A stretch of DNA of 64,000 nucleotides, taken from contig JAWCDE010000003.1 of the NCBI GenBank assembly GCA_038861395.1, positions 3,536 to 67,535 of the forward strand, written 5' to 3'. This DNA is from Thermoproteota archaeon (GTDB lineage: Archaea; Thermoproteota; EX4484-205; JAAOZP01). Positions within the stretch are counted from its first letter, which is position 1, and each line of letters opens with the position of its first letter. Below, in pieces: positions 2,977-53,317 of this stretch. The translations under genes were made by a program, and so were the position numbers. A model generated the notes under the pieces. The model did not search any database. It saw only the letters and a list, made by a program, of their open reading frames with translations, and was not told the DNA's origin.

Positions 2977-4008
<1,032 letters not shown>

Positions 4009-4055
4009 TCACAGAAAGGAATTTTAAAGGCATTTAAAAACTTTAGTTTTCCATT

Positions 4056-4949: not shown

Positions 4950-4956
4950 ATAAGGC

Positions 4957-6539: not shown

Positions 6540-6558
6540 TTATCGAAACATAGAATAT

Positions 6559-8553: not shown

Positions 8554-9345
8554 ATGAACAATCCCCACCTAGTTAAAATGCTTGGCCTAATCTTGGCCGC
8601 TGGAAAGGGAACTAGGATGCGCCCCTATTCCAATGCAATAAACAAAGAAATGTCATTAATAGGAGAAAGCCCAGTTATAGAGTATAGTGTAAGGGCTCTT
8701 GCAAACGCGGGCGTGAAAAAGGTTTTCATAGTACTCGGGGAGGGGAAGTGGCAAGTACTGGAATATTTGAGGGATGGGAATAGGTTTAACATTTCTATTT
8801 CTTATCTTTATCAAGATATGGGTGAAAAAGGGGAGAACAAAGGCACTGCCAAAGCTATTCAAACAGCTGAAAACTGGATAGAAGAAGATTTTATAGCGAT
8901 CTACGGCGATTCGTTTTTCCATCCTTATGATTTCTTGAAGAGCGAAATCGAGTTCCACTTAAAGGAAGAGGCTGACGTAACCATGGGGGTTTACATGATG
9001 AGGGATCATAAGGATTACGGTGTTGTAGAAGTTAGTAACGATCGGGTTGTAAATATTCTTGAGAAAGCTGCTAAGGAAGATGTTGAGAAGGTTAGAGTAG
9101 ACGACATGTTCGCCGTCAACTCTGGTCCTATAATCTTTACAAAAGAAGTTTTCTACTATATAAAGAAGACGAAGGCTTCCCCTTCAGGAGAATACTGGAT
9201 AACGGATACAATAAAGCTCATGATTGAAGATGGAAAGAAGGTGGTTGCCTATAGGATACCTAAGGAAGTTTTCTGGAGGGACATTGGAAGAATGGAGCAT
9301 AGGATAGAAGCAGAAGCATATCTCTTAAAGAAAATTAACCTTTAA
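8554..9345 (+). CDS. sugar-1-phosphate nucleotidyltransferase (glucose-1-P thymidylyl/uridylyltransferase-like)
   Basis: LILAAGKGTRMRPYS (GxGTRxxP) nucleotidyltransferase signature. The start may be Met9 at 8578. Confidence 0.75.
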   Translation: MNNPHLVKMLGLILAAGKGTRMRPYSNAINKEMSLIGESPVIEYSVRALANAGVKKVFIVLGEGKWQVLEYLRDGNRFNISISYLYQDMGEKGENKGTAKAIQTAENWIEEDFIAIYGDSFFHPYDFLKSEIEFHLKEEADVTMGVYMMRDHKDYGVVEVSNDRVVNILEKAAKEDVEKVRVDDMFAVNSGPIIFTKEVFYYIKKTKASPSGEYWITDTIKLMIEDGKKVVAYRIPKEVFWRDIGRMEHRIEAEAYLLKKINL

Positions 9346-10310
9346 CTCTGGTTTGTCAATGATTTTTCGACAGCATCTTGAATAAGGCTTAAAGCATCTT
9401 TTAGACTAAGATCCGTCTTGAATTGAATACCGCCTATGTTCTCTCTTCCTCCTGCCTCAATTTCTTCTCTTTCTCTAAGCTTTTCGTAAACCTTGTTCAG
9501 ATTAAGGCTTGAACGCGTAGCTATTGTGGCTGACACTGGCTTTCCTTTTCTCAACCCTACGCAAAGGATTACCCCTCTCGTGCTTTCTTCAAGCCTCAGC
9601 ATCAAGACCCTTCTTGCTGCCGATTCTACTTGATCCGTAACATTATAAGTAAAATATGTGATATTGCCGGTAGTCTTTACGGATTCTTTCATCTTTTCAA
9701 TAGCGTCTTCCACAATGCTCCATTTGCTAAGCTCTTTATTAACCCAATTAAAGAGACTGTCCCAATCCATTCTGTATATGGTCAGAGTGAGTTCTTCTCT
9801 AACCTTCTCTTTCATACTGTTTAAGAGGAATGCTTTATTCAAACTATCTGCTATTTCAGATTCTATGTTTCCTGAATCTATTTGATCAATTGCATCTAAC
9901 AATCTTAACCCGTCTTCATCGATTTTAAAATCCTCTTCAAAAACATGATAGACCAGTCTGGAAACGCTCTTAAACCCGCTGTCGAATACTGCTTCATTTA
10001 TTTTTGTCGCACCATTATAAAGCACTATTGAAGGAGAAGACTCGTGATGGTCTATCAGAACGTTATTACCTACGTATGTTAATCCCTTTGTCATGGGAAG
10101 CTCTATTAGTATACTCTTCATTACCCTAAGCGAACTTATTTCGCTATGCTTAGGATACTGTATTCTTGAAATATCGGTTTTTAAAACCCTTGCCAAGATT
10201 GCAGCAGTAAAGATTCCGTCGAGATCAGGGTCGCTCAGTATAGTGTATTCTGGGTGATCTTCTACAAATTGGAAGAGTATTTTCTTTCCCTCTTCGCGTT
10301 CAAAGCTCAA
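9342..10310 (-). CDS. DHH/DHHA1 family phosphoesterase (NrnA-like)
   Basis: Motif I SDPDLDG, motif III LIDHHE (DHH), and a DHHA1-like GGRENIGG near the C-terminus. Confidence 0.7.
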   Translation of the reverse strand: MSFEREEGKKILFQFVEDHPEYTILSDPDLDGIFTAAILARVLKTDISRIQYPKHSEISSLRVMKSILIELPMTKGLTYVGNNVLIDHHESSPSIVLYNGATKINEAVFDSGFKSVSRLVYHVFEEDFKIDEDGLRLLDAIDQIDSGNIESEIADSLNKAFLLNSMKEKVREELTLTIYRMDWDSLFNWVNKELSKWSIVEDAIEKMKESVKTTGNITYFTYNVTDQVESAARRVLMLRLEESTRGVILCVGLRKGKPVSATIATRSSLNLNKVYEKLREREEIEAGGRENIGGIQFKTDLSLKDALSLIQDAVEKSLTNQS

Positions 10311-10447: not shown

Positions 10448-11299
10448 TCAAGATGATTTCAGAACTCCCAGAAGCAAAATTACTATTCCCATAGTTAGAC
10501 AATAGTATGCAAATCTGTAAAAACTTTGTCTGGCTACATACTTTTTCAAAAGCCTTAAAACCAGAATGCTCACTACAGCGGTAATTACAACGCCGAAAAG
10601 AATATCTAAAAATTCCTTTTCAAAGGAAGCATCGTTAATTTTAAAAATGCACCCTCCTGTAATGCTTAAAACGGACAATAAGAGGGAAAACCTATATGCT
10701 TCGTCATGTTCTAAACCTGAGATTAGGGCTGTTGAAACCGTTATTCCCATTCTGGAAACACCGGGTATAATCGCAAACGCCTGTGCGAACCCTATTAGCA
10801 GTGCATTGGACGCGTTTAACTTACTCCTATGCTTAGAATATTTTGTCAAGTATAGGATTATGCCACTGATTAGCATTGCCACACCTGTTGAAAAAAGATT
10901 CGTGAAAATGTTTTCAAGAAAATCCTTCAGCAATAAGCTTAGTATTACAATAGGAATAGTGCCGAGCACTAAGTATTTTAATATCTTCCCTTCACTACTG
11001 GAAAAGTTTAGTTTAAAAAGTGTTTTAAACAGGGAATGTAGATCCTTCCTAGTGAAGAAGACTACCCCTATAAGAGAGCCTGCGTGAAGCACAATATCAA
11101 ACGCAACTGAAACCTTAATGTTAAGCAACTCTTGGAAGAAAACTAAGTGCCCCGAGCTCGAGATGGGAAACCATTCTGTTAAACCTTGGACAATGCTTAG
11201 AAAAAATACTTCAAGAATATTGTGTTGGAAAACGCTACTAATCAATAGATTGGAAACAACGAAGCATGTAATGAGTAGTTGATATCCAATGTTAAGCAT
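10448..11299 (-). CDS. uppP: undecaprenyl/dolichyl-diphosphate phosphatase (UppP/BacA family)
   Basis: GLTEWFPISSSGHLV signature and 8 predicted TM helices. Confidence 0.85.
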   Translation of the reverse strand: MLNIGYQLLITCFVVSNLLISSVFQHNILEVFFLSIVQGLTEWFPISSSGHLVFFQELLNIKVSVAFDIVLHAGSLIGVVFFTRKDLHSLFKTLFKLNFSSSEGKILKYLVLGTIPIVILSLLLKDFLENIFTNLFSTGVAMLISGIILYLTKYSKHRSKLNASNALLIGFAQAFAIIPGVSRMGITVSTALISGLEHDEAYRFSLLLSVLSITGGCIFKINDASFEKEFLDILFGVVITAVVSILVLRLLKKYVARQSFYRFAYYCLTMGIVILLLGVLKSS

Positions 11300-11349
11300 T
11301 GCCCTTTAATCTTCAACCTATTCTTAAAAAGTTTTTATGGGACATGAAT

Positions 11350-11935: not shown

Positions 11936-11936
11936 A

Positions 11937-14900
11937 CTAGAGGTTTTCCACGAATTTTCTTGCAGGAAACTCGTGTATATTGCCTTGAGGATCTATAGTC
12001 ACGATGTTCTTATCCAGTCGGATCGCGGCTAGCAGGAGTGCTGAGCTTAAGATTCCGTCATCAGAATCCAGGCAAACAGCATCAACAGACCTAATACTTT
12101 CACAAAGCTTATCGGCAAGTATACTTATATCTCCAAAGTCGAGTCTTCTAACTTCAATAGTCGGGGGCCATACCCCCTCAGACCTAAGTCTCCTACGAAG
12201 TACCTTTAACTTGTCTCCCAACTCCTTCCTTGAATACGCTACCAGAAGCTGGGGGCGATATTTTTTAATAATATTAAAAGCATTTTCCACGGATTCTCCG
12301 ATTGCCATAGCTAAACTAAACTTTAAGGCAGACCATTCCAAGACCAGTTTCCTAACGTGCGTCACAACTTCGTGAACATTTGTCTCAATCAAGGATGCGT
12401 ATACAGATTTTGGCGACGTATACACATACACTGCATAATCCTCAATATCTTTTCTTACTTCAATTGTAGTATGGGCGTTGAACGGCCTGTTCCCTCCCCT
12501 ACCATAATTGAAGCTTATAAGATATGATATGTTACCGTTTTCATCAATTTTCTCTTCACGTTTAACCTCTGATATCACAAGCTCTATTGCAGTACTGCTT
12601 TGGGGAAGTCTTTCGTAAAGATAATTGATGAACATTTCAACTTTCTCCAAAGGAATCCTAAGAGGAACTCGTACTTTCCAAGTTTCTCCGCGGACGGCTT
12701 TTTCTTCAATCTTCCATTTTCTTAAAAGAGATGGCGTTGTTATTCTTGCAGCCTTTAGAGCAGGAGGTACTGAAGCAAATATGGCGGTCAATGACGCGAT
12801 TGTTATTAGGGAAAGCATGTCGATAGGAGAAGTCTTTACGTTAACGGGGAGAACGATATTCAGAATATCCAGTAATCTGAACATGATCATGCTCAATATG
12901 TAGCCGATTCCGCCCCCTATGAAGCCTAATACGCCTGCTTCAACAATGAAAAGACTGGAGATGTGGGTAGGGTTCAAACCGACTGATGAGAACACGAATA
13001 TTTCGTTTCTCCTCTCGTAAATCAGAGTATAGAACATTATTGCGATGTTCAATACCGTTATTGTTATTGGAAAGACTATTAGGGTGCCAAAGATTTCTAC
13101 GTAGCCTCCTCTAAAGTAATATGTCAAGCTTTCGGAACTGGGCAGGGTTGCTACAAAGTAGCCTCCCAAGGACGCTAAGCGTTTAGAAGCCTCTCTTGCT
13201 TGCATATTATTGTTAAACAGACAGTAGACTGCAGAAATACTCCCACCAAGTTTTTTAGAAGTTTGCACGTTCGCAATCAGAAGGTTGTTTCCTGGAACTG
13301 GTTGAGCCCCCGATTGCGAGCCGGGGGGAACATAGAAAGGCGAGAACTCGCTGCCATCAGGTTCCTTTATTTCCCTAATCAAATCACCATCAAATATGCC
13401 TACTACTGCTAGTCTTAACCCTTTGAAATATATTACATTGCCAACTTCTATCCCCAGGCTTTTTGCTAAATGCTTGCTTACAAGCACAGTATTGCTACTG
13501 TTGAAAAGCCTATCCATCGAGTTCTCTGGGTATGTAATGCCTTTAATAAAATGAAAAGAGGGATCGCCCACCGATATGCTCCTAATACCGTATATAGGCA
13601 CTCCATCTACGTAGTCTATGGCACCATATGCTATTGGGCTCACCACCTTGTAATCTAGTGACAATATCTCTTTCTGCGACCCTATGAAAATTAAATCCTC
13701 AGAAGTGAGAAACTCTGACGGCCTACTTACAATAGACATGGGCGGTTTATCCGATGGACATGTTTTCGCAACCGTAAGCGTATTTGTCGCGAGAGATGCT
13801 CTCATTGAGGTTAATGTCGACATTGCAATAGCCATCGTTATTATGGAAATCAGTGTTAACAAGGTTCTAAGCCTTCTTCTCTTTAGATTTCCGATAGAGT
13901 ATGATATCGCAATTGTTAATGCAGGTATTAATGAAACGCCTTTCTCACTCTTTACTTCTCCAAGGAAATAGGGCACTAGGAAAACCGCGAGTATTATGAA
14001 CATCGCTAAATATACTCCAATCATGAGTTCTTGAATGGGGGTCTTCGAAAAACCTGGAAAAGTATGGTAGGATGTGGTCATAAGTATTAAGAAACTGATT
14101 ATTGTAAACGTTGCGTATTGCTCTTTTTTCTCAATAAATATTGCGCCAATTGCTAAGGATAAAGCTACGACTATTGTGAAAACGAGAATCGCATTAGTAT
14201 AGGCTTCTCTCAAAATCCTTTGAATACTTCTGGTTACTTCCTCTCCGGTTACAATAGCTTCTTGTTGATAAGACAATATCTTAAGAGGGTTTGAAGAATT
14301 CAGGGCTTCCGCTCCTAAGGTAATTATCTGATTCAGCCTATAGGCTTCTAAGCCTATGTAAAACCCTAGGCTTCTTGCTTCTTCCACCATCTTCATAGCC
14401 AATTCTATAGTCTTGTTAACAAAAGGCTGGTTTGATCTAGCTTGGGTAAGAGCTGGCTGATCCAGATTGGTTTCACTATTTCTATACAGTTTAACCGGTT
14501 GTTCAACACTACCTATCTCAACCACATTTCTCTTACCCTCTATAGACGTGGAAACCAATAGATGTAACGGGGTATCAGCTGGAACCACTACAATATTTCC
14601 AGTGATGTTTAAAAGATTAAGAAGCGATAGGTTTTCTGAAGAATATTCGAGTATTAACCGTTCCTGAGTTTTATTAAGCATAAGGATTCTTGTCTCTTGA
14701 AGAGGTATTTTCAACGTAGAAATAGAAGGAACGGCTGCTAGAACTCTTGCAACGGCACCGGGACATAGTGTAATCGTAATGTTTCTCTTCTCTCCTAAGG
14801 ATAGTCTTCCTACGGAAATCTTTTGAGGAACATACATTTCTCTCTTGTTTAAGGACGGGCCCACTATTGTTATTTCAGCATTAGACGGTACTCCTACGAT

Positions 14901-17294
14901 TGTTTCATCTAACGCTTTAATGAAAAAATAACTCTCGTTTACAAATATTAGGAAAAACTGAGGTTCCCTAGGCTTCGGATTTAACGATATTCTTAATATG
15001 GAGGCAGGTTTAACGATGAACTGCTTAGAATTATTATCTATCATCCTCCCATCAATAAAATCTAACCTTGTTGAAACCTCAAGCACATGCTCAGTATCCG
15101 TGTAATAAGGTGCTTCAAAAACATATTTTTCGACAAGAATAGCACCGGAGGATAGAGACGGTAATTTTAATTCTACTTTTCTTTCATATAAAATCTTATT
15201 GAAGGTTAAATCCTTTATAGTCCAGTTCAGAACAACACTCAAAGGATCTTCAAAAGCGTCGTTTACGACCCAAAGACTAACCCTTACCGTAGCCCCAGGG
15301 TTAAAACATAAAGATGTAAGATTACTGTAGTAGTCGCCATCTACAAATATTATAACATGCACAGGATTGAACGCATTCTTTATCTCATTATACGTATTCT
15401 TTCTGACCCCGTAGTAATCTATTATCGAGCCACTAGCCTGAGGAAAGTAGTCTGTGAGCGGGAAGATGCTCACTCCCATCGAATAATTATTCTTAAGCAT
15501 CCTAGCCCTATCTATCGAGTGTCTTAAAACAACCGATTGATATTTTTGACTGAGATCTACCAGGCTAAATAAGTCATCAGGCCCTGTTAAACTAGTTGGA
15601 ATAGCTCCGTTGAAACCCTTGTCCTTAAAAGTTTGAGCAACTTGCCAAAGATACGATATTGTCGCATTACTCCAGAAAGGCGAGTTTAAACTGGGGAGTC
15701 CAATTGGACTAATTATATTCGGGAAGGTGCTTCTATACGAGATATAGCCTGTCCAACTGCCAGTACCCCAGCCGTAGTCAAGATACTCATCATAATCTCC
15801 AGAATAGGGTAGGACTATGATGTTCCTATTCAGGTCTTTAGCCAGAGTGCTCAGCTCATAATCTAAGTAAAGGTTGACCCCGTAGCCATAATACGGCGAT
15901 TTCTCGTTAAGCCAACCGGGTAAAGTATGGGGGCAGATAATTACTATCGAAGGATAATTGTATGTTAGCAATATCATTTCAATAAGCTGCTTCTTGACAG
16001 AGTCGGAGTATTTTTTAAAGCGGTCTAGAGCAGGGTAAGACCCTATCAGTGGAAAATCCAATTGAACAAGTAAGCCTTCTACGGATGTCGATTCATAAAA
16101 CTCTTTGGGCTCAACATGTGCGAAAGACCTTAAGAAGTTGACATTCGCATCCTTTAGAAGTCTTACAGTTTCAAACGTTTTCCGAGTTTCTAGCATCGGG
16201 CCGATTCTGGAAAAATATGCTCCTCCTCTTAGAAAAATGCTAGCGCCGTTAACTTTAATATACGACTTTTCCCTTGAAAAACCTCCTTCTAAAAATCTTA
16301 TTCCAAAAATGGTTTTGATAGAACCGGCGTACTGGTTATTTTGATATAGGCTAATATTGGCAAGATAAACAGCAGGGTCTCCAACATCCCATGGGAACCA
16401 GTAGGCGGGATCAGGTATTGAGGCCTCTAGCGTCCTCCATCCTGTTTCCTTCGGAGAAAGCCTTATTCTAAAGGATTGTTCTATTTCCGGTATACTGCTT
16501 GAGTTCAACCTCTTTATCCTCAGCCTTATGTTCAGATTTTCTTCAAAATCTTCTTTATTTTGAACCAAGATTCTGAACTTAACTAAAGCTGGATTTGAAT
16601 ACTTTTCCACATCAACTAGAACAAGATTTACGACAGGGCCCGTGGTTCCAACAAGCACGATATCTCTCCACACTCCGGTGAAAGCATCACGCATGTTTGG
16701 AAACACTTCTGAGAAAGAGTATGCCCCCGCTGGATATATTCTGGATTCGAAGGAACCTTGAATGGGAGATTCTATATGCATTGTTAAAACATTGTTTCCC
16801 TCCCTGTTGATAGCGTCATCCACATCGAAGAAAAAGGGGGAGAAGTAACTTGCGTGCTCTCCCAAATATATCCCATTAAGCCATACTTTTACAATACCCC
16901 AAACCCCGGAGAAAACGATCCTCAGCTTTTGACTCTTCATTCCAATAGGCACTTTAAACGATGTTCTAATCCATATGGAATTGTTTAAACTCGTTGCTTT
17001 AAGTAAGAAAGGTACGTTAATTTTACTCCATGAACTATCGTTGAAAAGAGTGCTATAATAAATGTTAATGTTTCCATTTTTAAAGGAGTCAACCTTGTAT
17101 CTGAATTCTCCGACAAGCCTTTCTCTAGAAAAATAGAAGTAATCAAAAGGTGAAAAATGTTGAGCAACTTCGTTCAAAAAGTTTTCATAAGGTTCTTTAG
17201 AGAAGGTTCTTAAAGCAGGCATGACCAAGGCGGCCAGTAAAATCGATATTGAAACTAGGGTTAGTGGAATTTCAATGCTTCTCTTCAACACCAT
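11937..17294 (-). CDS. giant membrane protein: N-terminal signal anchor, GH2-like (beta-mannosidase/galactosidase-like) ectodomain, FtsX/MacB-type permease TM module, C-terminal cytoplasmic domain of unknown function
   Basis: WIRTSFKVP...LRIVFSGVWGIVKVWLNGIYLGEHASYFSPFFFDVDDAINREGNNVLTMHIE matches the GH2 N-terminal sugar-binding domain. VNFLRSFAHVEPKEFYESTSVEGLLVQLDFPL matches the start of the GH2 TIM barrel. Later, LRTLLTLISIITMAIAMSTLTSMRASL and NEIFVFSSVGLNPTHISSLFIVEAGVLGFIGGGIGYILSMIMFRLL are FtsX-domain signatures. The final ~400 aa have no Walker motifs. Confidence 0.65.
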   Translation of the reverse strand: MVLKRSIEIPLTLVSISILLAALVMPALRTFSKEPYENFLNEVAQHFSPFDYFYFSRERLVGEFRYKVDSFKNGNINIYYSTLFNDSSWSKINVPFLLKATSLNNSIWIRTSFKVPIGMKSQKLRIVFSGVWGIVKVWLNGIYLGEHASYFSPFFFDVDDAINREGNNVLTMHIESPIQGSFESRIYPAGAYSFSEVFPNMRDAFTGVWRDIVLVGTTGPVVNLVLVDVEKYSNPALVKFRILVQNKEDFEENLNIRLRIKRLNSSSIPEIEQSFRIRLSPKETGWRTLEASIPDPAYWFPWDVGDPAVYLANISLYQNNQYAGSIKTIFGIRFLEGGFSREKSYIKVNGASIFLRGGAYFSRIGPMLETRKTFETVRLLKDANVNFLRSFAHVEPKEFYESTSVEGLLVQLDFPLIGSYPALDRFKKYSDSVKKQLIEMILLTYNYPSIVIICPHTLPGWLNEKSPYYGYGVNLYLDYELSTLAKDLNRNIIVLPYSGDYDEYLDYGWGTGSWTGYISYRSTFPNIISPIGLPSLNSPFWSNATISYLWQVAQTFKDKGFNGAIPTSLTGPDDLFSLVDLSQKYQSVVLRHSIDRARMLKNNYSMGVSIFPLTDYFPQASGSIIDYYGVRKNTYNEIKNAFNPVHVIIFVDGDYYSNLTSLCFNPGATVRVSLWVVNDAFEDPLSVVLNWTIKDLTFNKILYERKVELKLPSLSSGAILVEKYVFEAPYYTDTEHVLEVSTRLDFIDGRMIDNNSKQFIVKPASILRISLNPKPREPQFFLIFVNESYFFIKALDETIVGVPSNAEITIVGPSLNKREMYVPQKISVGRLSLGEKRNITITLCPGAVARVLAAVPSISTLKIPLQETRILMLNKTQERLILEYSSENLSLLNLLNITGNIVVVPADTPLHLLVSTSIEGKRNVVEIGSVEQPVKLYRNSETNLDQPALTQARSNQPFVNKTIELAMKMVEEARSLGFYIGLEAYRLNQIITLGAEALNSSNPLKILSYQQEAIVTGEEVTRSIQRILREAYTNAILVFTIVVALSLAIGAIFIEKKEQYATFTIISFLILMTTSYHTFPGFSKTPIQELMIGVYLAMFIILAVFLVPYFLGEVKSEKGVSLIPALTIAISYSIGNLKRRRLRTLLTLISIITMAIAMSTLTSMRASLATNTLTVAKTCPSDKPPMSIVSRPSEFLTSEDLIFIGSQKEILSLDYKVVSPIAYGAIDYVDGVPIYGIRSISVGDPSFHFIKGITYPENSMDRLFNSSNTVLVSKHLAKSLGIEVGNVIYFKGLRLAVVGIFDGDLIREIKEPDGSEFSPFYVPPGSQSGAQPVPGNNLLIANVQTSKKLGGSISAVYCLFNNNMQAREASKRLASLGGYFVATLPSSESLTYYFRGGYVEIFGTLIVFPITITVLNIAIMFYTLIYERRNEIFVFSSVGLNPTHISSLFIVEAGVLGFIGGGIGYILSMIMFRLLDILNIVLPVNVKTSPIDMLSLITIASLTAIFASVPPALKAARITTPSLLRKWKIEEKAVRGETWKVRVPLRIPLEKVEMFINYLYERLPQSSTAIELVISEVKREEKIDENGNISYLISFNYGRGGNRPFNAHTTIEVRKDIEDYAVYVYTSPKSVYASLIETNVHEVVTHVRKLVLEWSALKFSLAMAIGESVENAFNIIKKYRPQLLVAYSRKELGDKLKVLRRRLRSEGVWPPTIEVRRLDFGDISILADKLCESIRSVDAVCLDSDDGILSSALLLAAIRLDKNIVTIDPQGNIHEFPARKFVENL

Positions 17295-17397
17295 GCTTTA
17301 ATCCGATTAGGGAATGTGCGCATATAAGTTTTGTTGAACTCCACTAACGATCAAAACAACATTTATAAAAAACAGCCATTCTCCCTAGAGAAGAAGA

Positions 17398-19746
17398 ATG
17401 GTTGAAAAGCTGCCTAGAATAATTGGAAAAGTAATGAAGGACAATTTTCATTTCCTCTCTTTGATAATTCTACTTATTTACACATTTTTATCTATAAAAA
17501 CCATATTCCTGGAAGGCATGATTCCTGGTGGCGATAATCCCGTACATTATGTTCATTCCTATCTTACAGCAGTATACATGCTTCCAAAACTAGATATTTT
17601 AGGTTGGGATCCGTTTAATCAATTCGGCTGGGTTTTCAACCAGTATTACAACCCCGGCATGAATATTTTCGTTTCCTTCGTATACTACTTGTTCTTAGGA
17701 TTATTAGATTTTCAGGCGGCATATAAAATTGCTTTTTTCCTCACCTATTTTCTGATGGCTCCTGCAGTCTTTATATTCGTATACGCTTTGACAAGTGACA
17801 AAATTGCTACCGTAATCGCTTCCCTCCTTTCCATCACTACATTTGTAGAAGAGAAAGAATGGCTTGATGCAGGATTGAAGCAGATGTATTACATAGGCAT
17901 GGTGCCAGAGAGGCTTGGTTTAATTTTTGCATTCTTCAGCATAGCTTTGCTGATTTACAATTTTAAGTCAAGGTCTTTAAGAGAAACACTGTTCCTAACA
18001 GGAGTTTGCTCTTTATTCTTTTCAATAACAGTATTAACTCATGTAATGATGGGGGTTTTCGCAGCATGTGTAGCAATTCTCATCTGTTTTTTCACTTCAA
18101 TCGAGCTAGTGTTAAGTACTTTCAAAGATTCCGGAAAACAAAGTCTTAAACCCATCCTAAAGAAGGGAGGGTTCCACTTCTTAAAACTTGCTTCAGTAGG
18201 CATGCTTTCCCTAGGGATGACTCTTTTCTGGATAATCCCGTTGTTTCAGACTTTAGATAAATATCACAGTTTCCCAGCGATTACATGGGCATGGGGACCA
18301 TCTGTTCTTCAAGAGATCTTTACTAGCATGCCTTGGTACTTATTAATATTCTACAGTATTGGTGCATTCTCGCCAGTTCTAGCAGAAGAAAAACCCTCCT
18401 TCTCATCCTTAGCCTCATGTAGTACCATACTCATATTACAATTCGTCAGCTTGGTTAATCTTTATGATGGCAATGTTGGGCTGAGACTCATCCTTGCCTT
18501 TATTACGTCGCTAGTGCTTTTCCTCTCGTCTAAAAACTATTCCATATCCTTTTTACTGGCTTCAATATCTATTTTCAGCTTTCTTGCAACAGGCCCAGAA
18601 ACTTATCTTGTATATTTCGGTCCAGTGAAATTAGACCTTCTCAGTATAATTCCCTTTGCTAGAAACTTCGGCTATTCCAAGTTCAGCGCCCCAAGTAGAA
18701 TGCTGATACTTTGTCTATCAGCAATTGGTTTCTCAAGCCTCTCTAGGAAACTATATTCATTATCCGGTAGAATGAAAAAGTTTTCAACGATTCCAATGGT
18801 GTTAGCAGGATTATTAGCTTTCCTAATAATAAACGCTTCCATAACTGCTCAAGCGCAGACTACTGACTTCTACTACCCTTGGTCTAGAGAAAAGGTGTTT
18901 AAGCTGACTTCAGACCACGCGGGCTTCAGCAAGATAAATGCACTTATCAGCTGGGTTAAGAATAACGTACCAGAAAATACTTACACACTGCTTCAAGACA
19001 CGTTGGATTTTGATAAGAATGGGATCCTAGAGAACTCCCACTATGTTTATACGGCATCCCTAATGCTTAAGCCTGTTGTAGGAGGGTGTTTCGGAACCAA
19101 TTATATAACTAATCCATACGCTAATTCTGAAGGCGACTACCTTTTGGGTTTTAAGAAAGATGAATTGTTAAAGGATAGAAGCATCATTCCAAGGCTTATG
19201 GATGAGCTTGGAATAGGGTATATTGCACTACACGACCCCTTATTAATTAACGCTTTAAACTCTTCCAGTGATTTTAGACTTGAATACTACGATGGATTAT
19301 ATGCAGTTTTCAGTAAAAACCCGCTTTCAAAAATAGTTTCTATCGAAGGCGAGGGTACAGTAGAATCTGTTAATTTCACAATAAGCAGGATCGAAGTAAT
19401 CGTATCCGGTGTCTCTGGCAACGAATCCAGCCTGATAATCAGACAAGTAAACTTTCCGGGTTTCACAGCGATTGTTAATAATGAAACTATTCAATTAGAC
19501 ACGTATTACCCTAATATACCTAGTGTGATAGTCAGTTGGCAGGATTATGTTCCAACAGTATACAATTTGAGAATCCCATTCATTAAAATTAGGCTTCCAC
19601 CAGGCTCTAATAAAGTGATACTGGTCTTTAAAATCCAAACTATAGGAAGCACTGTCTCTCAAGTTGCTTGGCTAATATTCTTACTATTAATAATTCTAGG
19701 CACAGTTATGGAAATTATACAGCGGTTTAAGAAGAAATGGAATTAA
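17398..19746 (+). CDS. polytopic membrane protein (>=13 TM) with C-terminal extracytoplasmic domain; GT-C-fold glycosyltransferase-like architecture
   Basis: 782 aa with many hydrophobic helices, then a ~280-aa soluble domain and a final TM (VAWLIFLLLIILGTVMEII). Its stop overlaps the start of the UbiA-family gene. Function is inferred from architecture only. Confidence 0.45.
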   Translation: MVEKLPRIIGKVMKDNFHFLSLIILLIYTFLSIKTIFLEGMIPGGDNPVHYVHSYLTAVYMLPKLDILGWDPFNQFGWVFNQYYNPGMNIFVSFVYYLFLGLLDFQAAYKIAFFLTYFLMAPAVFIFVYALTSDKIATVIASLLSITTFVEEKEWLDAGLKQMYYIGMVPERLGLIFAFFSIALLIYNFKSRSLRETLFLTGVCSLFFSITVLTHVMMGVFAACVAILICFFTSIELVLSTFKDSGKQSLKPILKKGGFHFLKLASVGMLSLGMTLFWIIPLFQTLDKYHSFPAITWAWGPSVLQEIFTSMPWYLLIFYSIGAFSPVLAEEKPSFSSLASCSTILILQFVSLVNLYDGNVGLRLILAFITSLVLFLSSKNYSISFLLASISIFSFLATGPETYLVYFGPVKLDLLSIIPFARNFGYSKFSAPSRMLILCLSAIGFSSLSRKLYSLSGRMKKFSTIPMVLAGLLAFLIINASITAQAQTTDFYYPWSREKVFKLTSDHAGFSKINALISWVKNNVPENTYTLLQDTLDFDKNGILENSHYVYTASLMLKPVVGGCFGTNYITNPYANSEGDYLLGFKKDELLKDRSIIPRLMDELGIGYIALHDPLLINALNSSSDFRLEYYDGLYAVFSKNPLSKIVSIEGEGTVESVNFTISRIEVIVSGVSGNESSLIIRQVNFPGFTAIVNNETIQLDTYYPNIPSVIVSWQDYVPTVYNLRIPFIKIRLPPGSNKVILVFKIQTIGSTVSQVAWLIFLLLIILGTVMEIIQRFKKKWN

Positions 19747-20603
19747 AATATTACTTAATAGAGCTTAGAGTTCAAGAATCATATAAAAACCTGCTAATAC
19801 TTTTAGCACCATTCTTCAGTAAGAAGCTTCTAGATCTTAATTACTATCAAAACCTCCTGCTGGGTTTTGCAGCACTCTTCTTAAACTCCAGCGCCTGTTA
19901 CATATTTAACGATATTAAAGATGCAGGCTTTGATGCCTTCCATCCTCGAAAGAAGAATCGGCCTATTGCAAGCGGCAAGATAAGGAAGTCTTCAGCATTA
20001 TTATTCTCTGTAATGCTTTTAGTATTTTCGTTATTAATCTCCTACTGGATAGGGACCAGTTTCTTGTTACTCTGCCTACTGTTATTTCTGAACTCGGCTG
20101 CATATTCTTTTCTCTTGAGAAACATAGTCTGGCTTGACCTTATCAGCATATCTTTAAACTATGTTTTCAGAACTTTAGCAGGATGCTATTTGGTCGATGT
20201 AGTTCTCTCACCTTGGTTATTAATGGGAGTTTTCTATATTTCTATGCTTCTTGCATTAGTTAAGAGAAGAGAGGAAATAATTATTCTAGACAGACCTGAG
20301 CTTCATCGGAAAACTCTTAAACACTACTCTATAAGCATCATAGATCAAGCTATCACAATACTCTCGACGCTCATATTAATATCCTACTCACTTTATACTC
20401 TTCACTCCCCATACTCTAATAATCTTTTACCATTCACGATTCCACTCGTAACTTTAATAATCCTAAAGTTTATATTTGTTTTGAAGAGCAGTAGAGGAAA
20501 TAATATGATTATAAGGAAGGTATTAACTGACAACATCATAGCAATAAGCTTATTTACATGGCTTGTTGTAACGACTTATTTAATATACTTCAACCAATGT
20601 TAA
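19737..20603 (+). CDS. UbiA-family prenyl-phosphate phosphoribosyltransferase-like protein (decaprenyl-phosphate phosphoribosyltransferase / DPPR synthase subgroup)
   Basis: YIFNDIKDAGFDAFHPRKKNRPIASGKI contains the ND-x2-D-x3-D plus HP-x-K-x2-RPIAsG pattern of DPPR synthases. The protein is 288 aa with about 8 TM helices and a KRREE segment after TM5, as in Rv3806c-type enzymes. Confidence 0.6.
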   Translation: MELKYYLIELRVQESYKNLLILLAPFFSKKLLDLNYYQNLLLGFAALFLNSSACYIFNDIKDAGFDAFHPRKKNRPIASGKIRKSSALLFSVMLLVFSLLISYWIGTSFLLLCLLLFLNSAAYSFLLRNIVWLDLISISLNYVFRTLAGCYLVDVVLSPWLLMGVFYISMLLALVKRREEIIILDRPELHRKTLKHYSISIIDQAITILSTLILISYSLYTLHSPYSNNLLPFTIPLVTLIILKFIFVLKSSRGNNMIIRKVLTDNIIAISLFTWLVVTTYLIYFNQC

Positions 20604-20688
20604 GAAAGTATCCGGTACAGATCCTTATTTTTATATTCTAGAATAAATCAATTAAAGAATAAAAGAATAAAAAAATAGAAAAAGGGTG

Positions 20689-22899
20689 CTACTTCTTGCG
20701 TCTCAGAAGTATTGCTACTACAATCACTATGATAATTATTACTACTACTATTGCGATGATCATTTCTGTTGAGATTCCGGGTGTTGGGGTTGGTGTTGGT
20801 GTTGGAGTTGGCGTAGGTGTTGGTGTGGGTGTTGGTGTTGGAGTTGGTGTTGGAGTTGGTGCAACGCCTGCAGGCTTTAATCTTCTTACGTATTCACGTA
20901 CGTGAGCCTGTGTACTTCCACAGTATGGGCCTGCTGGCAGTAGCGGCTTGTCCTCGTTGGGCCATCCCTCCCAGTATTTCGTGCTGTAGATGTACCAGTT
21001 GGGGTGTCCTCCCTCAGGTATTATCGGAAGCTCTTCGAGGATGATCTCCTGTATGCGCTGAGCAATTCTCCGTCTTTCTGCACCTGTCGCAGTATCAAGG
21101 CTTTCGATGAGCTCTATGAGTTCTGGGTTGACGTAGCTGCCGTAGTGGTTCCAGCAGCCGGAGTATGTTCCGACGAACATCTGCGTGTAGCGCTCATACA
21201 TGTCGTTGTTTATGCCGGCGTGCATGCAGTAGTCTGCGAAGTCGTAGGTGTTGGCATCCATCGCACCAGTGTAACCACCCCAGTCCTTGAAGTCAATGGT
21301 CATAGGTATGCCGAGGTTCCTGCTGACGGACTCTGCCACGGCAAGGTCTATGGCGTTAACGTCAGTCCATCCTACGATATCCATAATGGCCCAAGTGCCA
21401 ATGTCAGATTCGCCGAGCTTCACGTTCACACCAGGCTGGTCGGGAAGCTGGTCCGCGATTGTGAAGCCGTTGGCAAGCCACCATGAAGCCTTCTTCTTAA
21501 CCTTACCGACTACAAGGTCGATATCACCATAGTAGTCCATCATCCTCCTTACCCAATCCATGCTCGGACCATCCTTAGTATACCAGGAATCGCCGACCTT
21601 AATGCAGTGCTCGCTTAATATTGCTATTGCCTGAGCCGCATACTGATACATGTTCTTGCCACTGTAAGTCCCGTACTTCAAGATGTATTCTCTCTCAAGA
21701 GTTGAGTTCACAAGCTCCCTTGCTGCAGCATCCGTCCACGGTAACAGCAATGGGCTAGGATCGAACAGGTACCCCGCGGAAGCGAGGTTAACCTTCTCAT
21801 AGTCTATAACCATGGTTATAGCCTTGCGCAGCCATGGTTCGCATAATGGATACTTTCTATGGTTCGGAACTAGCAGGAGTGTGCTGCTCTCAGGGAAGTA
21901 CGGCGGGTTCTTGAAGTAGGTGTGTAGGAATCCTGGTTTCTGCCACACGTCCGGGGGCACGTAGTTGCCGTCCCAGTCTATCATGCCGGCTTGGAGGTCG
22001 GCGTAAATGGCTTCGTTGCTACCGTAGTAGTTTCCACCCCTGTATCCGAAGAAGTCTGGAGCTGGTTCTCCAAGGACGTTCTTGCCCCACCAGAGCGGGT
22101 TCTTCTTCATGATCGTGTAGGCTTTCCTAACAGGGTCGTGGTACCATGGGAGGTACATTCCTGAGGCTACTCTCCACTCCGCTGGGAAGTCTGGCTTAGC
22201 CCAGTCGTTCGTGAAAGCATTGATGTTATCCCATGAGCCGGCGTAAACTTCCTCCCAAACGTCCTTGGGCAGTATGGGGTAGGCGCGAGTCAGGGTGCGC
22301 CATACTACCGAGCTGTACCTGTACTCATCCTTCAGATGGACTATGAAAGTCCTCTCGTCGACTATCTCGAACTCCCTCATCCTGGTCTTAAGGCCACCCA
22401 TGTAGTATGCTGAAGGAGGAGAGTCTGGGAACGCCCCGTATAGGAAGAAGCTGTACTTAACGTCCTCGGTGGTTATCGGCCTGTACTGCTCTATACCAGC
22501 GGTGCTCACCTCAGTGGTGCCACTCCAAGCACTCCAATCAGTTATCTTAACCCAGTATATGCCGCTTCTCAAAGTAACCTTTACCCCAAGCCCATCGTTT
22601 ATCCACTCAATGCTCTCGCCAAGCTCCTTTATCAACTGGCCGCTTGCAGCATCAACACCGAACATAGGCTCGTACATCAGCACGACATCCCAGCCGCAAG
22701 CACCCTCAAGCTGAGTAACAGGGTTGAAGTTTGACTCGTCAGGCCAATAGCCGCAGCCCCAGACGATCTTGTTCCTTGGGATTTCTCGCTGAGCGCTTGT
22801 CAGCGGAACACCTGCGGGAAGGACTATTGCCAGAAGAAGAACGACAGCAACAGGCAGCGTTTTTATAAAGGAATGTTCTTCCTTACCCATCTTTATCAC
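20689..22899 (-). CDS. ABC transporter substrate-binding protein, family 5 (oligopeptide/dipeptide type), C-terminally anchored by a (TP)15 linker and TM helix
   Basis: Family 5 substrate-binding fold, N-terminal signal peptide, and a C-terminus of PAGVAPTPTPTPTPTPTPTPTPTPTPTPTPTPGISTEMIIAIVVVIIIIVIVVAILLRRKK. This is the last gene of the Opp-like operon. Confidence 0.85.
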   Translation of the reverse strand: MIKMGKEEHSFIKTLPVAVVLLLAIVLPAGVPLTSAQREIPRNKIVWGCGYWPDESNFNPVTQLEGACGWDVVLMYEPMFGVDAASGQLIKELGESIEWINDGLGVKVTLRSGIYWVKITDWSAWSGTTEVSTAGIEQYRPITTEDVKYSFFLYGAFPDSPPSAYYMGGLKTRMREFEIVDERTFIVHLKDEYRYSSVVWRTLTRAYPILPKDVWEEVYAGSWDNINAFTNDWAKPDFPAEWRVASGMYLPWYHDPVRKAYTIMKKNPLWWGKNVLGEPAPDFFGYRGGNYYGSNEAIYADLQAGMIDWDGNYVPPDVWQKPGFLHTYFKNPPYFPESSTLLLVPNHRKYPLCEPWLRKAITMVIDYEKVNLASAGYLFDPSPLLLPWTDAAARELVNSTLEREYILKYGTYSGKNMYQYAAQAIAILSEHCIKVGDSWYTKDGPSMDWVRRMMDYYGDIDLVVGKVKKKASWWLANGFTIADQLPDQPGVNVKLGESDIGTWAIMDIVGWTDVNAIDLAVAESVSRNLGIPMTIDFKDWGGYTGAMDANTYDFADYCMHAGINNDMYERYTQMFVGTYSGCWNHYGSYVNPELIELIESLDTATGAERRRIAQRIQEIILEELPIIPEGGHPNWYIYSTKYWEGWPNEDKPLLPAGPYCGSTQAHVREYVRRLKPAGVAPTPTPTPTPTPTPTPTPTPTPTPTPTPGISTEMIIAIVVVIIIIVIVVAILLRRKK
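20776..20866. repeat. hexanucleotide microsatellite (GGTGTT/GGAGTT)n, about 15 units, encoding the Thr-Pro linker of the substrate-binding protein
   Basis: The plus strand reads gtgttggggttggtgttggtgttggagttggcgtaggtgttggtgtgggtgttggtgttggagttggtgttggagttggt, and the minus strand encodes (TP)n. Confidence 0.9.
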
Positions 22900-22920
22900 C
22901 TTTTACAGTCTTAAATGAAT

Positions 22921-23015
22921 TATAGGTATTTAAAAAGTTTTCTGAATACCAATATAAAAACAGTAATTTCTTCCGAATACTGATACAAAAACATTAATTT
23001 CGGTACCTAAAAGGT
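22921..23015 (-). promoter_or_regulatory. promoter region of the substrate-binding protein gene, with TATA-like box and two tandem 31-bp direct repeats (candidate activator sites)
   Basis: The complement of 22925-22935 gives TTTTTAAATA (TATA-like), about 25-35 bp upstream of the ATG at 22899. Units TTCTGAATACCAATATAAAAACAGTAATTTC (22940-22970) and TTCCGAATACTGATACAAAAACATTAATTTC (22971-23001) are directly abutting, flanked by AGGTATTT on both sides. Confidence 0.5.
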
Positions 23016-23059
23016 ATTTTGCCAGAAATTCAGATGTTTAACAGAAAATGAGTCTATTT

Positions 23060-24858: not shown

Positions 24859-24864
24859 TTTCCA

Positions 24865-26813: not shown

Positions 26814-26971
26814 CCGTGTCGGTAGAAAGGACTAGGCTATATAAACTTTATGATTAATATGTTAGAAACTTGTTTGCAACTACCAGATGACTCCTTAAAC
26901 ATGATTCGGAACATTTGCGCCATATTATCAGCGACAAGATTAACTCGTTTCTGGAAATTCACATGTGATTT

Positions 26972-51635: not shown

Positions 51636-51965
51636 ATGACCGAGATGCGTATACCGGTTAAGGTGAAGTATGCAGAAGACTTCGTGAGAATCTATGCGAC
51701 GGGCGCGATCGGGGGCTTTAACGGCTATGATTTCAGAATAGCATTCTTCAACGATATTGTGAACCATCCGGAAGGACCATCCCAGCCTCCGACTGTTACG
51801 AGGGAGATCAAGGTTGAGATAATTCTCTCGCCAGTAGCTTTAAAACAGCTCACAAGATGGTTAAACCAGCACCTGACTGAGCTTGAGAAAATAATAGGGG
51901 AGATCAAAGACCAGTATCCGCAGCAACCGGGTCGAAAGGAAACCCTATCAGGATACTATGTTTGA
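51636..51965 (+). CDS. hypothetical protein
   Basis: 109-aa ORF overlapping the next gene by 4 nt, with no secure motif. Confidence 0.4.
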   Translation: MTEMRIPVKVKYAEDFVRIYATGAIGGFNGYDFRIAFFNDIVNHPEGPSQPPTVTREIKVEIILSPVALKQLTRWLNQHLTELEKIIGEIKDQYPQQPGRKETLSGYYV

Positions 51966-53317
51966 CAATCAAAAAGTGTCGAATCTTGAAAGCAGTAAGC
52001 CGAGACGCTCCTAAGGTCGGCATCCTAGGCGGGGGACTCTCCGGTATAGCTTACGCTTACTTCTCCTCTAGAATGGGTTACGATGTGACTGTTCTTGAAA
52101 AGGAAAATGTTTTAGGAGGCTTGATGAGAAGCATCAATGAAGACGGCTTTACATTCGACATTGGAGGATCGCATGTTATCTTCTCTAAGGATGCTGAAGT
52201 CCTTGACTTAATGCTGAAGCTCTTAGGTGAGAACAAGGTTAGAAACAGGAGAAATACCGCGATATTATACAAGGGGCGGCTTGTCAAATATCCTTTTGAA
52301 AACGGCTTATCCGATCTTCCTTTAACAGAGAATGTTTCCTGCCTAATCCATTTTTTACTCGCAAGAATTAAGAAAGGGAAAAAGCATGGAAATCTTAAAG
52401 AGTTCTTCTATAACTCCTTTGGAAAAGCTATCTCTGAAAAATACCTGATACCTTATAATGAGAAAATCTGGAAAATGAAAGTGGAGGATATTTCTCTAGA
52501 TTTTGTTGGAAGACTTCCTAACCCTAAGATCATCGATGTTATCAAGGCTTCTCTCGGAATCGGCTCTGAGGGATATGTGCACCAGCTTTACTTCTACTAC
52601 CCGAGGAAAGGCGGCATACAGTATCTTGTAGAATCGTTAAGAGAGAAAACCATAGGAAAAATAGTGACCGGTTTTGAAGTTAAAAATGCAAAAAACGAGT
52701 CTGGGAAATGGATTGTTTCAAACGGTTCTAAAGAAATGTTTTTTGACCATGTTGTTTCAACCATACCTTTACACGATGCCGTGAAGATTTTCGATACGCC
52801 TCGAGAAATCAGTAGCAATATTAATCACTTAAAGTATAATTCTCTTATTACTGTCGCAATAGGCTTGAGCAAGCTGGAAAGCAAGAATTTGAGTTGGCTT
52901 TATATTCCGGATAGGGATGTGCATCCTCATAGAATCAGTTTCCCGTCTAACTTCAGCCCTGAAAACGCTCCTGAGGGAAAAGCCTCAATACTCGCCGAGA
53001 TAACCGTTAAACCTGATGACCCGCTTTTCAACAAGAATGGTGAGGAAATTGTCGACATTGTGGTTGAAGAATTGGATAAGCTTAAGATATTCTCTAGAGA
53101 AAATGTTGTTTATAGCCGCGTTTTTAAAATAAAGTATGCTTACCCGTTGCTGGATTCCTATTATCGGGAAAACATCGGTAGGATTAAATCATTCTTCAAC
53201 GGGATTGGCGTTAAACTAGTCGGCAGGTTTGCCGAGTTCAAATATATCAACATGGATGATGCAATTAGAAACGCTGCAACACATTTAAACATATTAAACT
53301 TAAGAGGATATGAATAG
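51962..53317 (+). CDS. FAD-dependent oxidoreductase, UDP-galactopyranose mutase (Glf)-like
   Basis: FAD-binding VGILGGGLSGIAYAYF...VLEKENVLGG, FDIGGSHVIF, and the C-terminal KLVGRFAEFKYINMDDAI resembling the UDP-galactopyranose mutase GRLA.YKY.NMD tail. Confidence 0.55.
   Translation: MTIKKCRILKAVSRDAPKVGILGGGLSGIAYAYFSSRMGYDVTVLEKENVLGGLMRSINEDGFTFDIGGSHVIFSKDAEVLDLMLKLLGENKVRNRRNTAILYKGRLVKYPFENGLSDLPLTENVSCLIHFLLARIKKGKKHGNLKEFFYNSFGKAISEKYLIPYNEKIWKMKVEDISLDFVGRLPNPKIIDVIKASLGIGSEGYVHQLYFYYPRKGGIQYLVESLREKTIGKIVTGFEVKNAKNESGKWIVSNGSKEMFFDHVVSTIPLHDAVKIFDTPREISSNINHLKYNSLITVAIGLSKLESKNLSWLYIPDRDVHPHRISFPSNFSPENAPEGKASILAEITVKPDDPLFNKNGEEIVDIVVEELDKLKIFSRENVVYSRVFKIKYAYPLLDSYYRENIGRIKSFFNGIGVKLVGRFAEFKYINMDDAIRNAATHLNILNLRGYE

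Follow-up and report, generated by a model that had tools for sequence, protein, structure and literature searches.

An overlapping gene pair in a Thermoproteota archaeon is a candidate module for extracytoplasmic glycosylation with a lipid-linked pentofuranose

Introduction

Why would an archaeon encode an enzyme resembling the mycobacterial decaprenyl-phosphate 5-phosphoribosyltransferase (DPPR synthase) in a gene that overlaps the gene for an unclassified polytopic membrane protein? This question is raised by a locus of a Thermoproteota archaeon (assembly GCA_038861395.1), which we analysed in a stretch of 64,000 nucleotides (nt) of contig JAWCDE010000003.1 (positions 3,536 to 67,535), hereafter referred to as the window, with all coordinates given relative to its first letter. 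Two genes on the plus strand, encoding proteins of 782 amino acids (aa; 17398..19746) and 288 aa (19737..20603), overlap at their stop and start codons and are arranged divergently to the gene for a giant protein with glycoside hydrolase family 2 (GH2)-like and FtsX parts. A sequence-only reading of the window had described the coordinates, lengths, overlap, divergent arrangement and a motif block in the 288-aa protein just as we find them, and had suggested a furanose or pentose surface-glycan pathway. Based on the analyses described here, we lean towards the view that these genes constitute an operon whose products glycosylate an extracytoplasmic target from a lipid-linked pentofuranose and that both proteins act in one pathway.

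The logic of such a pathway has been described for mycobacterial arabinan, the Pseudomonas pilin and Citrobacter, in which a polyprenyl-phosphate 5-phosphoribosyltransferase (PPPRS) makes polyprenyl-phospho-phosphoribose and a GT-C glycosyltransferase moves the pentofuranose outside the cell (PMC11127046). The known systems also need a 5-phosphatase and a flippase and, for sugars other than ribose, an epimerase (PMC11127046). This account covers bacteria only, with archaea mentioned once, in a reference title (PMC11127046). In the searchable literature we found no archaeal report of a lipid-linked pentofuranose donor pathway from 5-phosphoribosyl pyrophosphate (PRPP), and the paper describing the Brockarchaeota does not mention the genes considered here.

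Results

The 288-aa protein is a likely polyprenyl-phosphate 5-phosphoribosyltransferase

The sole Pfam family matched by the 288-aa protein is the general UbiA family (PF01040, 78 bits). In NCBIfam, three decaprenyl-phosphate phosphoribosyltransferase models match with 191.8 (NF008977), 133.4 and 97.4 bits and a HAD-fused UbiA model with 129.5 bits, and the models for the other UbiA subfamilies (quinone, UbiA/MenA, MqnP, heme-o, chlorophyll, EboC and digeranylgeranylglyceryl phosphate (DGGGP) synthase) reach 41 bits at most, leaving NF008977 with a lead of 150 bits over any model of another subfamily. A sequence search of the PDB returned a full-length match to Rv3806c of Mycobacterium tuberculosis (8j8j, E=3.8e-23), and the next different protein was DGGGP synthase (E=2e-4).

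In Rv3806c, 13 functional residues have been set by structure determination and mutagenesis: N73 and D77 for Mg; R22, K87, R90, Y138, K143 and K208 for pyrophosphate; Q135 for ribose (O3); K28, Y70 and Y157 for the 5-phosphate; and K28, Y157 and K191 for the lipid phosphate (PMC10994848). The phosphoribose contacts are stated to be absent from UbiA prenyltransferases (PMC10994848). In an alignment of Rv3806c with the 288-aa protein, 37 members of its clade and 81 more distant relatives, 11 of the 13 residues are identical in the 288-aa protein and one more is replaced conservatively. The Mg and pyrophosphate set is represented by N58, D62, R11, K72, R75, Y123 and K192, with R128 in place of K143, and these residues are fixed across the 37-member clade save for the variable position of K208. 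K28, Y70, Y157 and K191, which contact the 5-phosphate and the lipid phosphate, correspond to K17, Y55, Y142 and K176, all of them identical and invariant in the clade. The motif block NDIKDAGFDAFHPRKKNRPIASG spans residues 58-80, and a second Asp-rich motif, sought as DxxxD past residue 120, is absent from the 288-aa protein and from 37/37 clade members, as it is from Rv3806c.

In total, these comparisons point to the 288-aa protein as a UbiA-fold enzyme of the PPPRS/DPPR-synthase type, and a PPPRS activity is likely. The protein does not group with DGGGP synthases or quinone prenyltransferases, and the proposal of the sequence-only reading that it is DPPR-synthase-like and distinct from DGGGP synthase, UbiA and MenA is borne out by the NCBIfam scores, the match to 8j8j, the functional residues and the lack of a second DxxxD motif. 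On the model scores and this lack, a DGGGP-synthase or quinone-prenyltransferase identity was rejected. The general UbiA match and the JGI label 4-hydroxybenzoate polyprenyltransferase carried by homologs could be taken to suggest an ordinary prenyltransferase that neighbours the membrane protein by chance; this explanation, already disfavoured, is made very improbable by the score of at most 41 bits for other subfamilies against 192 bits for DPPR synthase and by the conservation of the phosphoribose-specific residues. Many archaeal homologs carry the NCBI name "decaprenyl-phosphate phosphoribosyltransferase", and the enzyme family is therefore already known in archaea at the level of annotation.

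The 782-aa protein has a predicted GT-C fold

The sequence of the 782-aa protein gave no match in Pfam, NCBIfam or the PDB, and none to the named GT-C families of Pfam (PMT, PMT_2, ArnT-like, Emb/Aft, PF10131 and DUF6541), so that only structure prediction was informative. The protein belongs to a family of 38 sequence clusters, all from Thermoproteota and none annotated, and its nearest database homolog (94% identity) is labelled Candidatus Brockarchaeota, from which we take the host to be a Thermoproteota archaeon of Brockarchaeota-like affiliation. An AlphaFold2 model built on a 27-sequence alignment has a predicted local distance difference test score (pLDDT) of 88.6 and a predicted template modelling score of 0.90. 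In a Foldseek search of the PDB with this model, the top 24 matches are all GT-C proteins, among them AglB (3e-9), yeast and human STT3, the C-mannosyltransferase DPY19, AftA (6.5e-5), PglB and Pmt4, and the match probability collapses afterwards. STT3, Pmt and AglB match the model at least as well as the Aft enzymes, of which AftD and AftB are also structural relatives.

The protein has ~12-13 hydrophobic helices followed by an extracytoplasmic alpha/beta and beta-sandwich domain at residues ~490-745 and, unusually, by an extra C-terminal transmembrane (TM) anchor at residues 749-781. The first external loop, which follows TM1 (residues ~17-37), contains D46, conserved in 26/27 aligned family members, D71, conserved in 27/27, and H50; further conserved charged residues are E152, D157, R172 and H215. 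These residues sit where GT-C enzymes keep catalytic or phosphate-binding residues and may have corresponding roles. We conclude from the model that the 782-aa protein is very probably a GT-C glycosyltransferase, as the sequence-only reading had proposed from its helices and C-terminal domain, and gene context suggests that its donor is a polyprenyl-phosphate-linked sugar.

With STT3B and AglB as top structural matches, the 782-aa protein could be a divergent AglB/STT3 oligosaccharyltransferase paralog engaged in N-glycosylation with a dolichyl-diphosphate-linked oligosaccharide. The motif WWDYG, searched for as WWD[YWF]G, is present in 0/27 family members, and on this ground an oligosaccharyltransferase identity was rejected. 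In addition, a Pfam scan of the 27 aligned members at E up to 1 returned no STT3 match in any of them, Pmt4, AftA and AftD score nearly as high as STT3, and the extra TM anchor follows the C-terminal domain. Taken together, we regard an oligosaccharyltransferase as highly unlikely.

The same 27-member scan gave no informative Pfam match for the family as a whole, with one member reaching PF10131 at E=0.089. A profile search of 1.84 billion representative sequences placed the family in a superfamily of 624 proteins at E up to 1e-3, of which 192 are found at E up to 1e-10, and some of the distant relatives match PF10131 (PTPS_related) and DUF6541 significantly. We take PF10131 to be filed in the GT-C clan of Pfam.

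The two genes form a conserved, coupled pair

The 10-nt overlap ATGGAATTAA (19737..19746, plus strand) comprises the stop codon of the GT-C gene, which ends AAG AAA TGG AAT TAA, and the start codon of the UbiA gene, which begins ATG GAA TTA AAA. This arrangement is consistent with translational coupling. Homologs of both proteins are numerous, arguing that these are real genes and not chance open reading frames (ORFs). Upstream, a spacer of 103 nt (17295..17397) separates the GT-C gene from the divergent giant gene. It contains a pair of TATA-like boxes placed back to back: TTTATAAAA precedes the ATG of the GT-C gene by ~30 nt, and CTTATATG, read on the minus strand, precedes that of the giant gene. 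Both boxes may belong to promoters.

To describe the conservation of the pair, we use a set of 26 loci from species-representative genomes together with contigs from protein look-ups, in which homologs of the window proteins were placed by tblastn. Loci with a GT-C protein at least 57% identical to the 782-aa protein are referred to as the Brockarchaeota clade. In this clade the UbiA gene abuts or overlaps the GT-C gene in 14/15 loci with readable downstream sequence. Among ten more distant loci, in which the GT-C proteins are 34-40% identical, UbiA is found in a single one, L026 from a Guaymas Thermoprotei metagenome-assembled genome (MAG), where the two genes overlap by 4 nt and encode proteins that share only 37% and 34% identity with those of the window. 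A neighbour-joining tree recovers the Brockarchaeota UbiA proteins as monophyletic in 100/100 bootstraps and places the L026 protein as their sister in 11/100, a relationship that is unsupported. Whether ancestral or arisen twice, the pairing argues for a functional link, and the data support a conserved, translationally coupled pair.

Accessory steps and the identity of the sugar

Several results weigh against the reading of this pair as a pentofuranose operon. With 191.8 bits the 288-aa protein lies below the curated equivalog cutoff of NF008977 (234 bits) and is therefore no automatic equivalog; its identity to Rv3806c is only 24%, and the ribose-O3 contact Q135 is replaced by Ser120. Most family members from outside the mycobacteria have N, T, S or I at this position, which may therefore not define the wider family. 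A Pfam scan of the ORFs of the window of at least 150 aa, which covered all of them except three evident ORFs of an Opp-type ABC transporter at 23860-26813, detected no PAP2, HAD-PRP or PHP phosphatase, no flippase of the MATE, GtrA/SMR or LPG_synthase_TM type, and no DprE1-like (FAD_binding_4) or DprE2-like (short-chain dehydrogenase) protein; nor did genes of these kinds turn up in the Brockarchaeota loci. One locus of the Brockarchaeota clade, L020, has no UbiA gene downstream of the GT-C gene. Finally, the GT-C orthologs of the Thermofilaceae type (34-40% identity), known from contig flanks only, have no UbiA gene within 8-10 kb, suggesting that the donor need not always be the product of a UbiA enzyme or that the gene sits elsewhere.

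Other archaea provide candidates for the accessory steps. In the cultured haloarchaeon Halosolutus gelatinilyticus (L035, CP095491.1, 5200-10524), genes for a PMT-type GT-C protein, an NAD-dependent epimerase, a DPPR-synthase-like UbiA protein, a PHP protein and an LPG_synthase_TM protein constitute an apparently complete, uncharacterised module. In Methanocella (L034) the DPPR-synthase-like UbiA gene is followed by an LPG_synthase_TM gene, and in L026 the end of UbiA overlaps a gene whose product joins a PHP phosphoesterase to a nucleoside-deoxyribosyltransferase-like domain. The position of PHP directly after UbiA in L026 and in haloarchaea, together with the homology between these PHP proteins, suggests that PHP is likely the archaeal 5-phosphatase; LPG_synthase_TM, which follows UbiA in L034 and L035 and recurs in a distant locus, L039, is a recurrent flippase candidate. 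Used as tblastn queries, the haloarchaeal PHP, LPG_synthase_TM and epimerase matched neither the window nor any Brockarchaeota locus, and the epimerase, a single query from the haloarchaeal locus, had no match in related loci either.

The only nearby phosphoesterase in the clade of the window is a DHH/DHHA1-fold protein of 322 aa (9342..10310, minus strand), encoded ~7 kb from the pair and recognised by a weak DHH match, its fold and synteny. Its DHH motif, D87-H88-H89, is invariant. A PDB sequence search gave no match, and the AlphaFold2 model (pLDDT 91.6) leads by Foldseek to the pGpG phosphodiesterase PggH, an archaeal pAp phosphatase, NrnA and RecJ. Apart from one bacterial label (WOR-3), which probably reflects a misbinned MAG, the protein is confined to Brockarchaeota, nearly all of its homologs being labelled Brockarchaeota or Thermoproteota or being unlabelled. 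A function as 5'-phosphatase of the pathway would be speculative, and a housekeeping nanoRNase or pAp phosphatase is equally plausible.

With no epimerase nearby, ribofuranose is the simplest or default sugar and arabinofuranose is without support here. In a mycobacterial-style arabinofuranose pathway, the product of the UbiA enzyme would lose its phosphate and be epimerised to polyprenyl-phosphate-arabinofuranose by DprE1/DprE2-like enzymes encoded elsewhere, and the GT-C protein would be an arabinofuranosyltransferase. In favour of this pathway, the structural matches of the 782-aa protein include AftA, AftD and AftB, and the 288-aa protein is closest to DPPR synthase; STT3, Pmt and AglB are, however, equally good or better matches of the GT-C model, and the scans and the epimerase query described above returned neither DprE1/DprE2-like proteins nor an epimerase. 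The sequence-only reading had also drawn on a Glf-like UDP-galactopyranose mutase at 51962..53317, 31 kb from the pair. The ORF is present. It matches TIGR00031 with 59 bits against a cutoff of 303.75, in the N-terminal FAD-binding part only, has no match to PF03275 and has as best models PRK07208 'hypothetical protein'; the Glf identity was therefore rejected in favour of a generic PRK07208/amine-oxidase-type flavoprotein, leaving no evidence for galactofuranose. We consider the arabinofuranose pathway improbable. Of the pathway proposed by the sequence-only reading, the pentose-donor core is retained and the leanings towards galactofuranose and arabinofuranose are abandoned.

A giant GH2-like/FtsX protein accompanies the GT-C protein more widely than UbiA does

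The gene divergent to the pair (11937..17294, minus strand) encodes a membrane protein of 1785 aa in which Pfam and NCBIfam models identify GH2-like, MacB_PCD and FtsX domains. An N-terminal anchor is followed by a GH2 beta-mannosidase-like module, a long beta-rich region, the MacB_PCD and FtsX-type membrane module in the C-terminal half and a tail of ~250 aa, cytoplasmic and of unknown type; Pfam and NCBIfam scans detected no ABC ATPase domain in this tail. Residues 105-648 align with GH2 beta-mannosidases (5n6u, 8e-19; BtMan2A, 4e-17). In the alignment, Thermofilaceae-type giants keep the acid/base HNE and nucleophile TEFG motifs of clan GH-A, whereas the catalytic motifs are lost in the giant of the window and in every giant of the Brockarchaeota clade, with PHTL for HNE and ISP(I/V)G, ISPIG in the window, for (T/S)EFG; the giants of L006 and L024 have likewise lost the catalytic glutamate motifs. 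Judged by these motifs, the GH2 module would be a pseudo-glycosidase in Brockarchaeota and a probable active enzyme in the Thermofilaceae type. Because both catalytic glutamate motifs are gone, the module of the window is predicted to bind sugar and not to cleave it.

The giant gene is divergently adjacent to the GT-C gene in 18 of the 24 informative loci, including all Thermofilaceae-type loci without UbiA. Thus, of the neighbours of the GT-C gene it is the giant gene and not UbiA that is conserved most widely, a point missed by the sequence-only reading, which had noted the divergent arrangement alone. Large proteins with a GH57 domain (814 to at least 1167 aa) adjoin distant relatives of the GT-C protein in 3/4 contexts (L037, 8319-11468; L038, 281-2725; L039, 11257-12846), which suggests a general partnership of GT-C proteins with giant glycosidase-like proteins. 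L039 in addition has, at 1789-7783, a Gtr-like three-component layout composed of a GT2 gene, a gene for an unknown protein of 640 aa, the gene for the GT-C relative and, overlapping, one for an LPG_synthase_TM protein. This layout suggests as a general rule that members of this GT-C superfamily work with a big GH-like surface protein and that their lipid-linked donor is determined by the synthase gene next door.

The distribution of the giant gene also provides an argument for a different view, in which the functional unit consists of the GT-C protein and the giant with a hexose donor (dolichyl-phosphate mannose or dolichyl-phosphate glucose), the UbiA protein being a clade-specific passenger that feeds another process. 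Along with the 18/24 loci, this view is in agreement with the GH57 pairings, with the GT2 gene in place of UbiA in L039 and with the beta-mannosidase-like character of the GH2 module. Against it speak the start/stop overlap of the GT-C and UbiA genes, kept in two lineages of UbiA that the tree does not support as sisters, and two loci, L019 and L023, which keep GT-C and UbiA and lack the giant. Moreover, even in the Thermofilaceae-type loci without adjacent UbiA a PRPP synthetase gene lies within ~5 kb of the GT-C/giant pair, in two arrangements: ~2.5-3 kb downstream of the GT-C gene in L001/L031, L030, L033 and L003/L027, and directly downstream of the giant gene in L002/L028. The synthetases of the two arrangements are paralogs (36% identity), and in L002 small Pribosyltran and Nuc_deoxyrib_tr genes adjoin the GT-C gene. 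The PRPP synthetases are a suggestive hint of a link to PRPP and not a proof. Overall, we regard the hexose-donor explanation as a minor possibility and continue to favour a pentofuranose donor in the locus of the window.

The vicinity of L002, which is from a Thermofilaceae MAG, also encodes a second type of giant FtsX-anchored protein, of 1495 aa, with Peptidase_M28, MacB_PCD and FtsX domains (17763-18292). It may be general among these archaea to fuse enzyme-like modules on the outside of the cell to membrane domains of the FtsX type.

Neighbouring genes and other features of the window

The Brockarchaeota clade usually retains, in synteny downstream of the giant gene, the genes for a BacA phosphatase, a sugar-1-phosphate nucleotidyltransferase and the 322-aa DHH/DHHA1 protein. 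The first encodes a BacA/UppP-type polyprenyl-diphosphate phosphatase (10448..11299, minus strand), which matches PF02673 with 217 bits, is syntenic in most loci of the clade and reaches at most 169 bits with the NCBIfam UppP models, below their cutoffs; it might belong to the module by providing or regenerating the polyprenyl-phosphate acceptor. The nucleotidyltransferase (263 aa, 8554..9345, plus strand) matches PF00483 with 135 bits and falls below the cutoffs of the Arch_glmU and RmlA-like models. The 640-nt gap between the BacA and giant genes (11300-11936) contains short ORFs only, among them one of 68 aa (11350-11556, minus strand) that resembles the C-terminal remnant of a larger enzyme and may be a decayed gene.

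Just downstream of UbiA, a gene at 20689-22899 (minus strand) encodes a family-5 solute-binding protein of 736 aa that ends in a (TP)n stalk of ~25 repeats and a TM anchor. None of the related loci has a homolog of this protein, not even the 94%-identical L008. Immediately past the UbiA stop codon the GC content steps up from ~0.38 to a level of 0.45-0.47 across an Opp-like ABC transporter operon (~20600-27000). The region downstream of UbiA lacks synteny with relatives and may therefore be an insertion or rearrangement. Further along, the window contains a type IV toxin-antitoxin pair of AbiEi antitoxin and AbiEii nucleotidyltransferase toxin (29557-30817, minus strand) and a cluster of genes for secreted proteins that is unusual for an archaeon (39795-48026), including a Peptidase_C25 (gingipain-like) protein of 1189 aa, a CarboxypepD_reg/Big protein of 428 aa, a GH12 glycosidase and a serpin of 460 aa whose Pfam match, at 417 bits, is very strong.

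Discussion

Combining the subfamily assignment, the predicted fold and the gene context, our best reading of the module is as an archaeal version of the PPPRS/GT-C systems that handle pentofuranoses in bacteria. In this model, the 288-aa enzyme would transfer 5-phosphoribose from PRPP to a polyprenyl phosphate, probably of the dolichyl type, at the cytoplasmic face of the membrane, as its homology and conserved residues suggest, yielding polyprenyl-phospho-5-phosphoribose. Next, the 5-phosphate would be removed, likely by PHP in other archaea and possibly, as a speculative candidate, by the DHH/DHHA1 protein here. The resulting polyprenyl-phosphate-ribofuranose would be flipped to the outer face, where the GT-C enzyme would use this donor by means of D46 and D71 in the first external loop and transfer the pentofuranose, most simply ribofuranose, to an external acceptor. 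The best candidate for this acceptor would be the divergent 1785-aa surface protein or a glycan bound by its dead GH2-like module. Threonine-rich stalks are typical sites of O-glycosylation in archaeal surface proteins, and the 736-aa solute-binding protein with its (TP)n stalk is therefore another possible acceptor.

A broader and tentative reading, which we consider rather doubtful as a whole, is that the conserved unit is an archaeal envelope machine not recognised before. In this scheme an unclassified GT-C protein would act with a membrane protein of ~1800 aa, whose GH2-like module (in Brockarchaeota a dead one) would either hold a glycan or be the acceptor and whose MacB/FtsX-type module would couple to the membrane, and the donor synthase would be interchangeable, with a PPPRS for ribofuranose here and a GT2 protein in relatives. 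If true, this would represent the first lipid-linked pentofuranose glycosylation in Archaea as part of a wider partnership of GT-C proteins with giant GH proteins, the GH57 giants included.

A system similar in layout is that of Citrobacter youngae O1/O2, in which ORF15 is a PPPRS-PRP protein, ORF14 a MATE flippase and ORF12 a GT-C protein that founded family GT136, and in which undecaprenyl-phosphate-linked ribofuranose is the default donor, with epimerases as optional add-ons (PMC11127046). In both systems a gene for a UbiA-fold phosphoribosyltransferase lies beside one for a GT-C protein with a C-terminal beta-rich external domain, and as in the O1 prototype ribofuranose is the simplest prediction. 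In contrast to the three-component set of Citrobacter, the window has the coupled PPPRS-like and GT-C genes, with no fused HAD phosphatase domain, no epimerase gene and no MATE, GtrA, LPG_synthase_TM, HAD, PAP2 or PHP protein among the scanned ORFs, the DHH/DHHA1 gene being 7 kb away. Moreover, the GT-C protein of the window has an extra C-terminal TM anchor and is provisionally placed in a different, unclassified family; the pair is joined by a giant GH2-like/FtsX protein; and the archaeal host lacks lipopolysaccharide.

With the mycobacterial decaprenyl-phosphate arabinose pathway (Rv3806c, Rv3807c, DprE1/DprE2 and Emb/Aft), the window shares the full-length alignment to Rv3806c with 11/13 functional residues and the structural relationship of its GT-C protein to AftA, AftD and AftB. 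It differs from this pathway in the 24% identity, the score under the cutoff and the Ser in place of Q135, and in that the scanned ORFs include no PAP2 phosphatase, DprE1/E2 or GtrA/SMR-type transporter. O-arabinofuranosylation of the Pseudomonas aeruginosa pilin uses a PPPRS and a dedicated GT-C gene located beside the gene for the target pilin (PMC11127046). This combination of a PPPRS-type donor synthase with a GT-C protein encoded beside its target provides a model for the pairing of the GT-C protein with the giant. The Pseudomonas system has DprE1/E2 homologs and a separate phosphatase, and the putative target in the window, at ~1800 aa, is of a different kind. The pilin GT-C protein is named TfpW.

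Among archaea, L035 and L026 share with the window a UbiA protein of the DPPR-synthase-like subfamily (33-38% identity) linked to a GT-C gene. L026 has in addition the GT-C family of the window, the giant and the overlapping UbiA gene, in the order giant, GT-C, UbiA and PHP-nucleoside-deoxyribosyltransferase fusion. In these loci PHP lies right after UbiA, and LPG_synthase_TM is present in haloarchaea and Methanocella, whereas neither was found in the window or its clade; furthermore, the haloarchaeal GT-C protein is of the PMT/PMT_2 type. Compared with STT3/AglB/PglB (GT66), the GT-C protein of the window lacks WWDYG (0/27) and an STT3 Pfam match and is 11-15% identical.

The logic of PPPRS and GT-C is thus already known from several bacteria, fuller uncharacterised versions are present in genomes of cultured haloarchaea, and the pathway is not unprecedented. 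What is new here is an unclassified GT-C family that, in Brockarchaeota and in a single lineage of Thermoprotei, is tightly coupled to a PPPRS, with a conserved giant GH2-like/FtsX partner whose active site is dead in this clade and with the usual accessory genes lacking. If the pentofuranose reading is true, ribofuranose-type sugars and a new GT-C family would be added to archaeal surface glycobiology, a family of ~38 clusters inside a superfamily of more than 600 representatives without annotation would receive a function, and this family would be tied to unexplained giant GH-like/FtsX surface proteins of thermophilic Thermoproteota. The Halosolutus module would provide a tractable experimental entry to archaeal pentofuranose glycosylation. 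The prediction made here overturns nothing and would extend a bacterial paradigm to the archaea.

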